Shown piece after piece: positions 16,300 through 40,309 of a stretch of DNA of 64,000 nucleotides. Position numbers and translations under genes: made by a program. Below the pieces are notes generated by a model, which made no database searches, was not told the origin of the DNA, and saw nothing but the letters and a program-made list of their open reading frames with translations. Each line of letters begins with the position of its first letter. Position 1 is the first letter of the stretch. Origin of the DNA: Somniosus microcephalus (Eukaryota); contig CM126233.1 in the NCBI GenBank assembly GCA_052327205.1, positions 36,146,001 through 36,210,000 of the forward strand. Direction: 5' to 3'.

Positions 16300-17012
16300 T
16301 GTTGGTGCTTGGAAATGGAACACTTTCCATTTTAGATAGTCTTTGTCAGCATCAAACACTCCCACGGCGGGTACAGCACGGGTTAGATACAGAGTAAAGG
16401 TCCCTCTACACTGTCCCATCAAACACTCCCAGGGCAGGTACAGCACGGGTCAGATAGAGTAAAGCTCCCTCTACACTGTCCCATCAAACACTCCCAGGGC
16501 AGGTACAGCACGGGTTAGATACAGAGTAAAGCTCCCTCTACACTGTCCCATCAAACACTCCAGGGCAGGTACAGCACGGGTCAGATACAGAGTAAAGCTC
16601 CCTCTACACTGTCCCATCAAACACTCCCAGGGCAGGTACAGCACGGGTCAGATACAGAGTAAAGCTCCCTCTACACTGTCCCATCAAACACTCCAGGGCA
16701 GGTACAGCACGGGTCAGATACAGAGTAAAGCTCGCTTCACACTGTCCCTTCAATTGGCCTCGGCTACAGAACACCACCGCCTACTATAGCAGTATGACAT
16801 TTTCCCCCCATTTCCCACGCCAGCGTGACCTTTAAAATGAGATTGCCAATTTAGCACCTTGGGTCTGTGTCCACTCGGAATTAAATCAAGACTCCTTTCA
16901 ATTAAGGCCCTTACAACCAGATAGGAGACTGCGATCCCATCAGCCTGGGCTAGATTTGGGCTCAAGTGGCAGAGTGAAAGGACACTGTCTAACCCACTGG
17001 GTCACCCATTCC
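16300..17012 (-). mobile_element. LF-SINE-like tRNA-derived SINE with an internally amplified tail
   Basis: Minus strand: CCTTTCACTCT, AAATCTAGCCCAGG, GAAAGGAGT, TTCCGAGTGGACA, TTGGCAATCTCA, GAGGCCAATTGAAGGGACAGTGT...CCCGTGCTGTACCTG. These blocks are colinear with the LF-SINE consensus as I recall it. Related copies at 17470-17740 and 60880-61160. Confidence 0.55.
16351..16748. repeat. Minisatellite, 6 units of 65-67 bp
   Basis: Unit ATCAAACACTCCCAGGGCAGGTACAGCACGGGT(T/C)AGATACAGAGTAAAGCTCCCTCTACACTGTCCC starting at 16351, 16418, 16483, 16550, 16616 and 16683. Confidence 0.97.
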
Positions 17013-20950: not shown

Positions 20951-21209
20951 AGCAAGAAATCCAATGGTGTACCAAATGAGCTTGGTAACAGTACTAGCAG
21001 CTTGTTCTACATTTGCAAATGTGGCGCTGGAGCACCAGCGACAAACCAGGGCAAATACATATTTTAGTTTCAAATAAAAACCAGAAAGAAAACAAAATTT
21101 AAAATAAAACTAATTTGGGGAGACTTCATCCAACAGTCCTTGTGAAGCTGGACACAACCAATTCTCAATCCAGCAATTTAGTAAGCTCACTGACCTTGAG
21201 GCATGAAAT

Positions 21210-21400
21210 TTAAAAAGCACTGGAAATATTTAGAGGGTCCATTATTATAGGAAAAGGGAAAAGGATTAACATTCAGACGGAAACCCTTAGTCAGAACTTC
21301 TGATGCAGGGTCTGCACCCGATGTCTTAACCTATCTTCTCTTGGTGTGCAGTAACTGGATTTTGTTTTCATTCCAGATTTCCCACATTTGCAGTTTTTCC
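21210..21400. mobile_element. Degenerate palindromic Penelope-type mini-element
   Basis: ctggaaatatt...ttaacattcaga..cccttagtcagaa|ttctgatgcagggtc..cccga..ttaacc...ttcattccagattt; same architecture as 25664-25972. Confidence 0.5.
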
Positions 21401-24849: not shown

Positions 24850-25212
24850 ATTAAGCTATCTTTTCTTGTCTGGATCCAGATCAAACTAGTTTTGAAAACT
24901 ATGAAGGGTTTAAAGGGGGTAAACAGTGAAAGATTGTTTCTGCTGGTTGGTGAGTCAGCAACATGGGGGTATAGATTGAAGATCATCACTAGGTGAATGA
25001 AGGAGGTAGTTGGAGAGATGTTTTCACATGGAGTATCATTAGGACATGAAATGTACCACAAGTGGCTATTGAGGCAGAAACAAGATTATCTAAAAGTGAA
25101 CTACATATTGGAAAAGAATATTAAAGGGTATGGGGAAAGTAGAGAAGAGGGATTACAGTAGCTGTTCCAACAGGCACAATCGCCTCCTTCTGTACTGCAA
25201 TTCCTATGATTC
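24850..25212 (+). mobile_element. Old CR1 3' fragment
   Basis: aagggtttaaag..gtaaacagtgaaagattgtttc..ggtgagtcagcaacatggggg and a cctccttctgtactg tail. Confidence 0.6.
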
Positions 25213-25278
25213 ACACATGGCCATTGGGGATGGGGTTTTTAGACTAGGTTATTTAATGCCAATTTTGGAAACACAAAC

Positions 25279-25403
25279 CATAATTATTTGCACCAGACGT
25301 ATTCTCCAATTCCAGAACCCATTCTCCTGATGGATTTTCATCCCATGAATGTGTAGTCATGAATGCCCAGTCAGTAAATCCCTCAGATGAGTAATCACGC
25401 TGT
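25279..25403 (-). CDS. FURIN: Furin coding exon (exon 14 equivalent; P domain)
   Basis: 125 nt, AG/GTTTGT (weak donor); QRDYSSEGFTDWAFMTTHSWDENPSGEWVLELENTSGANNY(G). Confidence 0.96.
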
Positions 25404-25704
25404 CTGCAGGAGATAAAAAACACAATTGTAAATTAGTACAAGCCCTTATGGTTCTTTCATCCCAAAATACCAATGGCATTATTTTCTTTTTTCTCTGCCC
25501 CAAAGGAAATAAATTGTTTTTTAAATAATTGTATGCATTCATTATTTCACTTTTGAAAGTATACTATGCAATGCTTCATATCCCCTCCCAATTTTACTCC
25601 TCACCATGCAAAAATCAGCATTCCACATACAACGGGTAAAGTCTATGCTCTATTGCGGAGTAAAACTCAGCAGGCCAGGGCAGCTTCTGTGGAGAGAGAA
25701 ACCG

Positions 25705-25741
25705 AGTTAATGTTTCAGGTCGAAGACCTTTCATCAGAACT
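25705..25741 (-). ncRNA. Minimal type I hammerhead ribozyme motif (furin pre-mRNA sense strand)
   Basis: Minus strand reads AGTT-CTGATGA-A-AGGTC-TTC-GACCT-GAAAC-ATT-AACT. Confidence 0.6.
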
Positions 25742-25858
25742 GGAAAAAAGCAGGAAATGGAAAGCAAGCTTAGGGGCTGGGAAAAGGAGGGGTCATCCCC
25801 TCCCCCTCCCCCTTTTCCCAGCCCCTAAACTTGCTTTCCATTTCCTGCTTTTTTCCCC

Positions 25859-25895
25859 AGTTCTGACGAAAGGTCTTCGACCTGAAACATTAACT
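25859..25895 (+). ncRNA. Minimal type I hammerhead ribozyme motif
   Basis: AGTT-CTGACGA-A-AGGTC-TTC-GACCT-GAAAC-ATT-AACT: conserved core, 5-bp stem II, stem I AGTT/AACT and a loopless stem III with one mismatch. Confidence 0.6.
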
Positions 25896-27298
25896 CGGTT
25901 TCTCTCTCCACAGAAGCTGCCCTGGCCTGCGGAGTTTTTCCGGATCTCCAGCATCCGCAGTATTTTGCTATCGCTCTATTGCTGAGTAATGGACAGGGAC
26001 AGAACGGGTGTAATTGTGATCTCCTGAAATCCAGCTCCTAGATCCCATTGAGCAAGAATTTAGGGCAGTGCTGTAGCCTCCTTCTGTCCTTGCAAGTCCA
26101 GGAGGTAAGAATCAAGGACTGTAAGTCATGGTCCCTCGTATCAGAGGCCAAATGCTACAGTAATTAAAGCGCGGGCTCCACATCAACAAGTAGATTCAAG
26201 TTTACTCTCTACAAAACATTGATAGAAAGACTCTCAAGATTGCCCCTGCAGTGCTCGGTCCAATAACTTGCTCTATTTACTCTGACAAAATGGGATGTAG
26301 GCCAGAAACTCCTTAATCACAAGGATCCCACATATCAGATTTACCCTCCTTGAACACCTCCCCTAAAAGTCAAACTCCTATAAACAGGATGACTCAGCTC
26401 ACCTTCACTCTGGGAAGGCTAAAATTTCTTTTATTTTAAATTACCAAAATAATTGGCTTGCTCTGATTATTTGTTTCAATTAAGCAACATTTGTATGTTT
26501 ACTTCTTTCTAGAGAGACAGGGTTCCAGCAATAGTCAGAGCTTTTAAAAAGAGCTGCATTTTCTGGAAAATGGAAACCAGCCCAATATTTCACAACATAT
26601 TTATAAACGCAAGCTCCATTAGCAAGACTTCTTCAAAATACTTTACAGTAGCACAGACTCGACACCAGTACAGTCACTTACTTTTCAGCTGCCATTGTTC
26701 TTGGCTTCTAACCCAGTGACATAATTTAGTAAAATGAGGTGTGGTACACATGGCGCCAGTGAGCGAGCTTTAGAGTGACTGTGGGGACTGAATTAAGGTA
26801 GTGGGAGTGGTACTCATGTGTACTGCCTCGTCAGTTTTGGTTGTGCCAGCAACGCTCACCCTAGTCAGGTGGGATGGAGCATGCTCCAGGTGACTGGCTT
26901 GCAACTTTAGACATGCCAGCCACCAGCAGCGAGCCAGTGATTGGGGACTGGATTTCTCATGGTTCATTCTCAGCAAATACATCATTCTCTCCCACTCCAC
27001 TATCTTCCACGGAGCCTTAATTGACCATGTTTGGGGAAAGGGGAGAAGAAAGTGGGTTATCCAGCCACCCCCACCCCAGGTTGCAATACTACAACAGATT
27101 GAACTTCAAACTCCTCTCGGTCAGATACAAATGAACAAAATGGAGTCAAACACAGAAAGACACTTAAAAAAAACACTACACATTATAGAATTGAGCGCTG
27201 ATTTCCATTATTCACAGGATATTATTCATAATTTTTGTGCAATTTATTCTCATGTCTTTTGAGTTACAGATTTCACCGAGTGATTAGAAACTTCATAC

Positions 27299-35019: not shown

Positions 35020-35150
35020 GGAGTCTGAAATAAAACACACACACTGCTGGAAATGCACAACAGGTCCGTCAGCATTAGCTCTGACAAAGGGTCTCAATCA
35101 GAAACATTAAATCGTCTTTTTTGTTTCAGACCAGATATGCTTGCTGTGAT
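35020..35150. mobile_element. Degenerate palindromic Penelope-type mini-element
   Basis: tctgaaataaaac..gctggaaatgcacaacaggtc..cagcat..CTGACAAAGGGTCTCAATCAGAAACATTAA; decayed hammerhead core. Confidence 0.5.
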
Positions 35151-35860: not shown

Positions 35861-36392
35861 AATGGTCAGTGGAAATTTGAAAAGAGAACTCCATCTTTTC
35901 AAGCAAAACAAAACTCTTCACACTTTCAGGATTGAACAGCAGGTCAATAACAAGTCACGCAAAGGGTTTTCAGAAAAATCAACTGAAACTTAAAACAGAA
36001 GGATGAGACATGATTGAAGTTGCTTGAACACAATTGTAGACTGCTTAAATACACAAAAGCCTCTTATTAAATTACCAGTTAAGGAGAAGCAAAAAACAGA
36101 TGAGTCATCAGAAACAATTCCTCTTTCTTCGAGAAATCGAAGCAGTCTGACTCACGGCTGCTGCATGCTTCTATTGTCAAAATGAATGCTGGCGAGATAA
36201 AAACCTTCAACTACCCCATACCCTGAGTACAGATAAAAGAAGCAAGCATGTCGATTCATATTACATGGCAGCATGCTTGAGGTAATGAAGCAGGAAAGAG
36301 ATCTGGAGATTTCAGTGGACATGTTTAAAAAAGGTGGTTCAGTGTTCACAGGCAGCAAAGAAAACAATTAAATTGTTGGGTGTATAGATAAC

Positions 36393-36512
36393 TAGTTCTG
36401 AAACGTTAACTCTGTTTCTCTCTCCACAGATGCTGTCTGACCTGCTGAGTATTTCCAGCATTTTCTGTTTTTATTTCAGATTTTCAGCATCCACAGTATT
36501 TTGCTTTTGTAT
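36393..36512 (+). mobile_element. Single-arm Penelope-type terminus (same family as 25664-25972)
   Basis: AGTTCTGAAACGTTAACTCTGTTTCTCTCTCCACAGATGCTG..GACCTGCTGAGTATTTCCAGCA; a further opposite-strand fragment lies at about 38061-38118. Confidence 0.7.
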
Positions 36513-37644
36513 TAGATAACTAAATTGTTGGGGTGTACAGATAACTAAGAGTGTGACTTCTATGTCTTAAAAAATGTTGTAGCTGGCCTTGGTAGGGCAG
36601 CGTCTGGAGAACTGCATTTGGTTTTGGTCTCCATATTGCAGGGAATATGTAGCGTTATTGGAGAGAGTCCAGGAGCACCAATTCCTGAATTCCAGGGGGG
36701 GGGATGAGTTAGCAGAGAAGATCGCCTAGCTGGGACTTCACTCTGAACAGCAGGATAAGAGGGAGGACTTGACAGAGGTGCAAGATATTCATAGGTGTGG
36801 AGAATCTCATCCAGGAAGGTACTGCTGTTAGGCACAGGATTCAAGGACTAGGCAACAGGATTCAAGGACTAGGCAACAGTGTTTAAAGTTCAGCGTGTCA
36901 AAATAAAAACAGGAAATTTAGGCTTTTTCTTTAAATAAAAGGGTGATAGAATTGTGGAACAGATTACCAGCAAGGGTGGTGGTAGAGAACCATGGCAGGG
37001 TTTAAAAACATGCATTAGTTACAGGATAATAGTAAGGAAACTAATGGGAGGTTTGAATGGGTAGGTTACAAAGCCCAAATGATCTTTTCCTAAAACATTA
37101 CAGTACTACACCTAACCTTGTCCATTACTACCAGTTCAAATGTAATTGCACTCGTTTCTCTTTCCTACCCCTGGCTGAGATGGGCTAACTGGCGGTGATT
37201 ATCCAACCTTAGGATGCACCACACAGTAGATTTCATAGAATACAACCATAGAATTTAAGCACAGAAAGGAAACCATTAGGGCTATCGTGCTTGTTCCACT
37301 ACCAGCTTCACTCAGCTGTCTATTCCAATCCAGTTTTTCCCTGGTCTCACTGCGTGCCCTTTAATATTCTTAAGAGGCAAGTAATCTGTTAAACGCCGTG
37401 ACGGAATTTGCTTAATAGCCACTTGTGTAATGTAAAGTAAAACCTGCATGTGAAAAAAATATTCAGGCAACATTATTAGGCTTTTACCCAATTAAAAAAA
37501 TAAAGTTTTATAATGCAACATTTTGAAAACGGGCACTGATTATTTCAACGTTATTGCATCTATAACTGAAAGCAGGCATCCAACAAAAAGAGTTTAGAAC
37601 TTTGGGCAACAATAAAACTTTAACATGGAGTAACAGCTACTTAC

Positions 37645-37857: not shown

Positions 37858-38199
37858 CTGCAAATATTTAACCAAAACAAGTCATGACCGTACACCTTGT
37901 GAAGTCCAATCTTGTACTGTTGTTGAACAAAAATTATCCAAATATAAATTTGGGCTACAAAATTGTGCACGTTTTCAGAAATGCTTTTTGCAATCAAACT
38001 ACTTGCATAGAATTTACAGTATAGAAACAGGCCTTTTGGCCAAACAAGTCTGTTAGTAACAACAGCTGGAAACACTCAGCAGGCCAGGCAGCATCCGTGG
38101 AGAGAGAAACAGAGTTAAGTCTATGTTCGTGTTTATGCTCCACAGAAATGCATATTCCACTGTACATAACATATCCTGCACAAGTAATATTTACTTTAC

Positions 38200-39085: not shown

Positions 39086-40309
39086 AGAAAAGGTCATTCA
39101 ACCCATCAGACCCCTGCCATCCAGAGTCAGTGTATCTCATCACGTCTCCCCCCCCCCCCCCCCCAACCCATTGGTCCCCATCTTTGAAGCACTCAAGTCT
39201 AAAAATGACTGTTGCTATTAGCATGCACCATATTCCGTTATCCACAAGTTCAGTGGAGGAGTTAACTTTTAAAATAAACTGGTTGATGTCTATATTAAAA
39301 TAGTGGACAAAAGAGTGTATTACAAACACAAGCGTTTGACCGCTAATATCGCCAACCCGGGGGGGGGGGGGGGGGGGGGGAAAAAGAGAAGAGAGCGAAA
39401 AAAAAGAGGACAAAGAATTGTTTTTAAAAAATTGACCACCATTTTCGCCCCTGGGTGATATCCACTTTCCTGTTGGAAGTGCCGTGTAAAGATTGGACTG
39501 AACTGTATTGCCCTTCATGGTTAAGTAGCATGTTGACACTCACTAACAAGGCTCACACCTAAACAGCCACCATTTGGGCAATATTCCAGAGGCAGACTGG
39601 TGCCTGAGGTACTGACCCCAGCAAGGAGGGGAAGGGAGGGAAAATGCAAACTGAAAGTAGATACAGCGCTTTAATATTCCAACGTGTATTCTGGTGTTTT
39701 CGATTAAACTAATTGCAGTTGCAGATAATACTAAACAGACTCATGGTCGGAAAATAGGGCACTGCATTTTATTCCTCAGATGCCTTACAAAACTTCTACA
39801 ATTACCATTGGCATCAGCTAGTAAAAAGGCTTTACATCCTCATCAAACCGGTTTGCTAGCAACTGAAAGGCAATCTTGCTGCCTACCAGTTGATAATTCA
39901 CAGCAGTAACACACATGCTGCTGTACAAACACATGAACTTTAGGCTTGTACAGCAGCCTACATGTAACTGCCATGAAGAGTTAACATTCTGTATCATTTT
40001 AAATGGGGATATTTTGGGCAAGTTCTGCACCCACCACCCCCCCCTTGTTTATTCCCTTTTTCTGTCCACTTGACCTTGGTGCAACCAAGATGGTGAGGAC
40101 TCCACACTGCTCCAGGCCACCAATACCCCTTGTAGTTGGGCAGTAAAGACTCTCATCTAATTCCTTTAGCTCAATGCTTCCCACTCAACATGGCCCAGGT
40201 GAGAAATTCATTGCAGTGGGGCTCAAAACATGCATGTTTCGGGAGATGATATTCCTTGCTACGGCGTTTTTTTGTTGCGGAGATAAGTAAAAGCAAGGCA
40301 GTACATAAA

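Follow-up and report, generated by a model that had tools for sequence, protein, structure and literature searches.

Background

In the Penelope-like insertions described by Arkhipova in 2013 (PMC3846280), an inverted pLTR completes the insert, a 31-bp tail is optional, duplications of 8–10 bp flank the ends, and the palindromic junctions are read as products of self-priming. The same insertion scheme is given by Craig in 2021 (PMC8557442), with a tail of 30–40 bp that is often present at one end. The minimal hammerhead was defined by Cervera and de la Pena in 2014 (PMC4209133) as a motif in which the G10.1–C11.1 pair and a palindromic 15.2–16.2 are conserved. According to the same survey, single minimal motifs do not cleave and dimers cleave at low levels, and in Schistosoma dual minimal hammerheads lie on opposite strands, 100–700 bp apart; the text consulted here makes no mention of cartilaginous fish. 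For Poseidon, Frangieh in 2024 (PMC11167929) describes a protein that nicks and extends both strands, with two reverse transcription start sites bounding the tail and a hammerhead that is dispensable for insertion in vitro. Animal non-LTR retrozymes are composed of direct tandem repeats that give rise to circular RNAs (PMC7229834; bioRxiv 10.64898/2026.07.22.740005).

The locus analysed here occupies part of a furin-type gene intron within a 64-kb stretch of DNA (the window). It is a single 309-base insertion with a 17-base target duplication, made up of two head-to-head ends of a high-copy repeat and likely representing the dead stub of a 5′-truncated Penelope-like retrotransposon, with hammerheads that are predicted not to cut. 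A Penelope-like origin had been proposed in a sequence-only reading of the window, and it is supported by the architecture (PMC3846280, PMC8557442, PMC4209133).

As in EN+ Penelope-like insertions of the type of Pen2a_Av from Adineta vaga (PMC3846280; PMC8557442), a terminal copy is inverted head to head, a tail of 30–40 nt is found at one end, the target-site duplication is proven by an empty site, the junction is palindromic, and the terminal repeat contains a hammerhead motif. Unlike these insertions, it has no ORF between the arms (an extreme 5′ truncation), resides in a vertebrate host and is flanked by a duplication of 17 bp rather than 8–10 bp (PMC3846280). With Poseidon PAc of Anolis carolinensis (PMC11167929) it shares two boundaries separated by a tail, whereas PAc is autonomous, was tested in vitro and has an ORF that starts in the hammerhead. 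It resembles animal retrozymes (PMC7229834) in being non-coding, Penelope-related and endowed with a type I hammerhead, but comprises one inverted pair instead of direct tandem repeats that each hold a complete hammerhead. As a lone copy, the insert is of little importance and a routine instance of a pattern already described; it is also a clean, dated fossil of Penelope-type integration, with a proven duplication and both junctions readable.

Architecture of the insertion

The host gene encodes a proprotein convertase on the minus strand, with Peptidase_S8 and P_proprotein exons (Pfam matches in 4 of 7 frames). Its best match among solved structures is furin (E 1.3e-39), which makes it furin-type, paralogues also being possible. 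The furin intron named in the sequence-only reading thus holds as an intron of a furin-type gene, with the correction that the gene runs on the minus strand. Downstream of its last exon, a tandem repeat at 16463–16835 appears as repeated translations in the ORF list.

Table 1 Coordinates of the insertion, its motifs and the host intron (window positions)
Feature	Position	Strand	Remarks
Host intron between two P-domain exons, furin-type proprotein convertase	25404..27298	−	243 nt separate the end of the element from the true acceptor
Left copy of the 17-bp target-site duplication	25647..25663		G at 25657 versus T in the right copy; site empty in organisms C and D
Tail-less inverted arm	25664..25792	−	Sense in the host pre-mRNA; microhomology of 2 nt to the duplication (25662–25663)
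Branch-point-like motif (A at 25707), pyrimidine tract and AG (25688–25687)	25687..25711	−	Candidate acceptor; complete pairing within the hairpin predicted
Minimal type I hammerhead motif	25705..25741	−	C3 at 25737; A, not G, at 16.2 (25711); predicted cut 25709/25708
Loop at the inverted junction, 4 nt	25793..25796		From the arm alignment
Direct arm	25797..25938	+	5′-truncated at a C-rich run
Minimal type I hammerhead motif	25859..25895	+	C3 at 25863; A at 16.2 (25889); predicted cut after 25891
One-sided 34-nt extension, Penelope-type tail	25939..25972	+	Internally ~21 nt shorter than the copy at 36395–36517
Right copy of the target-site duplication	25973..25989		Version that aligns to the organism C empty site

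The direct repeat that flanks the inverted arms has an identity of 16/17, and a repeat of equal quality was found at 1 of 400 random window positions. The arms pair as 25662–25790 with 25808–25938, with 4 substitutions and a single 2-nt indel separating them over 131 columns; the pairing reaches the 4-nt loop if nine additional bases on the right side are treated as a bulge. Folding of the element RNA yields −260.8 kcal/mol (z = −28), a stability equalled by none of 100 shuffles. The inverted arms and the 17-bp repeat with its single mismatch were found as first described, apart from the extension on the right arm, which is without counterpart on the left. The duplication may comprise 21 nt if a one-base insertion is included. 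The combination of inverted copy, one-sided 34-nt tail and duplication corresponds to that of published Penelope-like insertions (PMC3846280, PMC8557442).

At the tail-less junction, the target site and the element share an 8-mer (25654–25661, 25928–25935 and 25980–25987), a degree of sharing matched by 77 of ~20,000 random 17-mers in a post hoc comparison. Within this 8-mer, the left duplication (25657) and the right arm (25931) show the same T-to-G change.

Long inverted arms and a flanking duplication are also the features of a MITE or a foldback DNA transposon with long terminal inverted repeats. Such an origin is extremely improbable, since the ends are asymmetric, with the tail on one side only, the 5′ truncation points vary, and a single-arm copy elsewhere in the window possesses its own duplication of ~30 nt. 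The duplications of LINE-type endonucleases span a range that includes both 17 bp and ~30 bp, which would suit a SINE or LINE 3′ end carrying a chance hammerhead-like motif and inverted by LINE-type twin priming; moreover, the searches described below (window tblastn and tail-frame protein search) tied no Penelope ORF to the arm family. However, when twin priming acts on one RNA, the segments copied are adjacent and do not overlap, whereas the arms duplicate the same 129 nt, and no poly(A) or short-repeat tail is present at 25972. The motif layout is, in addition, that of Penelope-like elements (PMC4209133), and the SINE or LINE reading is very unlikely.

Empty sites in related organisms

Contigs of four public sequencing runs (organisms A, B, C and D) were aligned onto the stretch. 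A 5,545-nt contig of organism C aligns over 25002–25646 and resumes directly at 25973 with zero bases between, and thereby lacks exactly 326 nt, the sum of the insert (309 bases) and one repeat copy. For organism D, a contig contains 30 bases at a place where 31 are predicted from an empty site. The direct repeat is therefore a true target-site duplication, and the orthologous sites of both organisms confirm the target-site-duplicated insertion that had been proposed. In organisms A and B, one of which may be the source of the window, both filled junctions are seen, with no contig spanning the whole element; the insert is a presence/absence marker that separates A and B from C and D.

The flanks in organism C differ at 63 of 1,473 aligned bases (4.3%), and the insertion is therefore young; the divergence between the arms fits neutral decay since that event. 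These observations also bear on whether the element has been exapted as a regulator of furin pre-mRNA, by means of a ribozyme cut, an edited hairpin or an alternative acceptor. The proximity of the true acceptor (243 nt) and a duplex of 130 bp whose sense arm holds an acceptor-like site would suit such a role, which is nevertheless highly improbable given the absence of the element from organisms C and D, the former with so small a flank difference, and an arm divergence of the extent expected from neutral decay.

Hammerhead motifs

A minimal-hammerhead descriptor with a stem check, composed after the motif had been seen, matches exactly two sites in the 64-kb window, one in each arm, and gave no matches in 100 dinucleotide shuffles. 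Both arms carry the CUGANGA and GAAA boxes, the UH site, helices I and II and an unpaired base before helix II. This is the minimal type I layout, in agreement with the hammerhead core on each strand noted in the sequence-only reading. In the Rfam comparison suggested there, hammerhead models gave no match at E up to 1 over the whole window, where the 17 Rfam matches are all sub-threshold miRNA hairpins. Among these, the hairpin at 39892–39978 has weak matches (E 0.35–0.83) that are probably due to chance.

As in the minimal hammerheads of metazoan Penelope elements (PMC4209133), the core boxes are combined with a 4-bp helix I, one unpaired base between positions 9 and 10.1 and a helix III devoid of a loop. 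Unlike these, both arms have A10.1–U11.1 in place of G10.1–C11.1 and a non-palindromic C15.2–A16.2 in place of the palindrome for a dimeric helix III. The G–C pair is found in an older copy at 21296–21330. Across the window copies, 15.2–16.2 reads CG, TG or CA, a set that appears to be the signature of CpG decay from CG; CG is retained in the copy at 36398, and the arm-family base at 16.2 is inferred from three window copies. Two further CpGs are intact in both arms, and the shared CA was therefore likely present in the template, with later gene conversion as an alternative source. The derived changes common to both arms agree with the proposal, made at the outset, that one arm was copied from the other or homogenised with it, and a template shared by the two arms is supported.

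Folding of a single arm gives a probability of 0.92–0.99 for stem II and of only 0.02–0.26 for stem I. In the whole element both stems fall below 0.0001 on either strand, as predicted earlier for sequestration in the pre-mRNA hairpin. The stems also remain below 0.0001 in a nascent chain that ends right after the motif: the motif is predicted to be sequestered even there because a head-to-head pair always makes the antisense arm first. Each of the two motifs carries damage and, by prediction, is trapped within the hairpin; the insert is probably inert. In an alignment of 17 rows that mixes two unrelated families (five window copies and 12 of the 37 loci of the metagenome family described below), 90.4% of 136 cells are paired and both partners vary in 4 of the 8 pairs, with 59 of 500 shuffles scoring as high.

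The repeat family

The arms are members of a dispersed and very abundant family. Between 11,969 and 20,209 contigs per run align on the stretch in the four runs, nearly all of them on the arms, and the summed depth, which is not a copy number, is ~1 million over the motif against 6–17 in the flanks. Of the joints, 15 are listed and 189 more exist; 14 of the 15 listed, in contigs from other loci, connect a left-arm position at 25701–25740 to a right-arm position at 25858–25943, with joint sides of only 18–35 letters; both orientations therefore occur within one contig.

Further copies are found in the window. A decayed head-to-head double hammerhead at 21207–21400, ~4 kb from the insert, comprises a minus-strand motif (21266–21298) and a plus-strand motif (21296–21330), with a tail on the plus arm only. 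At 35024–35130, a minus-strand tail fragment is joined to an inverted, decayed plus-strand hammerhead, forming an asymmetric fold-back. The region 36366–36547 contains a single arm (36395–36517) within a ~30-nt direct repeat; its hammerhead copy at 36398 retains GAAACGTT and is missing the CUGANGA box and stem II, possibly through deletion between two CTGA words. A short minus-strand copy at 38064–38118, in the sense orientation with respect to the host gene, has its start no more than 2 nt from where cleavage is predicted, and its acceptor-like AG is changed to GG.

The fold-back is a recurrent product of the family and not a unique design. The sequence-only reading had instead envisaged a distinct palindromic element with a ribozyme core on offer whichever strand is transcribed; that such an element is special, or its ribozymes useful, is not supported. 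A rival explanation is a dedicated, non-autonomous, retrozyme-like unit that is transcribed and reinserted whole and uses a ribozyme on either strand. The derived changes common to both arms would suit such a unit, as would a contig of organism D from another locus, which spans a similar hairpin centre (25734–25839, with 14 differences and 5 gaps), as expected also from a palindromic master copy. The fold-back centres, however, vary in 14 of the 15 joints listed and among the window copies, the helix III palindrome is absent from both motifs, and both motifs are predicted to be sequestered. There is also no tandem layout, the defining trait of animal retrozymes (PMC7229834; bioRxiv 10.64898/2026.07.22.740005). 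Nor is a ribozyme on each strand special, since dual opposite-strand motifs are already described (PMC4209133) and the antisense arm is always transcribed first. A dedicated palindromic element is accordingly very unlikely.

Exact-pattern scans for the arm family gave no match in viral contigs or metagenome contigs. A tblastn search of the window with the frames of L033, a metagenome locus described below, returned one chance-level match (E 0.45), and of 15 candidates from a protein search with a 43-residue open frame through the tail none passed, which is weak evidence. In literature listings, no description of the arm family in sharks was found; the supplements of PMC4209133 and bioRxiv 10.64898/2026.07.22.740005 may list such motifs.

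Proposed mechanism of integration

For a Penelope-like insertion, the structure may be accounted for by the following steps. An element-encoded endonuclease would nick both strands, 17 nt apart, and reverse transcription would begin in the tail and halt after ~180 nt at the C-rich run. The second arm would be made in the same event, with a slight preference for a cDNA that folds back and copies itself over the nearly as probable use of the other nick to prime on a second RNA, and the ends would be joined via 2-nt microhomologies. Self-priming is favoured because the arms end within 4 nt of each other, while the tail-less left end and its 2-nt A/U microhomology suit priming from the second nick; more than one copy is needed to decide between the two. 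Nicking and extension of both strands, as in PAc, would explain both junctions. Within pre-mRNA of the host gene, the two arms would anneal as one long hairpin and conceal the ribozyme and the acceptor-like site.

The template likely carried the CpG-type G-to-A change at 16.2, and cleavage was therefore likely unnecessary for the jump. A ribozyme mutation common to both arms agrees with the dispensability of cleavage for insertion in vitro.

An acceptor-like site overlapping the hammerhead

The likeness of the minus-strand segment to a branch point and acceptor (Table 1) was judged against the splice consensus. The predicted cut site of the family lies 2 nt ahead of the branch-point-like A, which is itself 20 nt ahead of the AG, and in older family copies an ATG follows the AG. 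Three sense-oriented copies cover the acceptor-like site, an anecdotal number: the AG is absent from two (38118 and 21298), and the third is the hairpin-protected copy in the furin-type intron.

A speculative and very unlikely reading places the hammerhead at the branch point of an intron that belongs to the Penelope element itself, so that ribozyme folding and U2 binding would be mutually exclusive and would constitute a splice-or-cut switch. Fold-backs would then be tolerated in host introns as their hairpin hides the portable acceptor, whereas single sense copies would have to lose it. For Drosophila virilis, the reported intron end is the 5′ side of helix I and not a position past the cut site (PMC4209133). 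Should family members turn out to have a functional splice acceptor joined to their ribozyme, the importance would be greater, such copies being very numerous in introns.

An unrelated family with the same motif layout

A looser motif scan identified 43 metagenome and 3 genome loci. These were rejected as members of the arm family for want of a blastn match; 37 of them form one unrelated family, and 9 were excluded because stem II was unconvincing. The 37 loci (within L001–L043) make up an AT-rich repeat family of eukaryotes, found in metagenome assemblies, whose minimal hammerhead layout is the same, and are an analogue of the arm family rather than proof for it. A 4-bp stem II is formed in 35 of the 37 loci although those bases were left free in the scan, and all 37 have G at 16.2, where A was permitted, and CG at 15.2–16.2. 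Inverted partners are present in three loci (L001, L013 and L023). One further member, L033 (L033:1-2224), runs into a broken RT-like ORF (RVT_1, E 7.5e-9), which a DKG-like motif suggests to be of Penelope type; the start of this broken frame corresponds to the optional tail of the copies.
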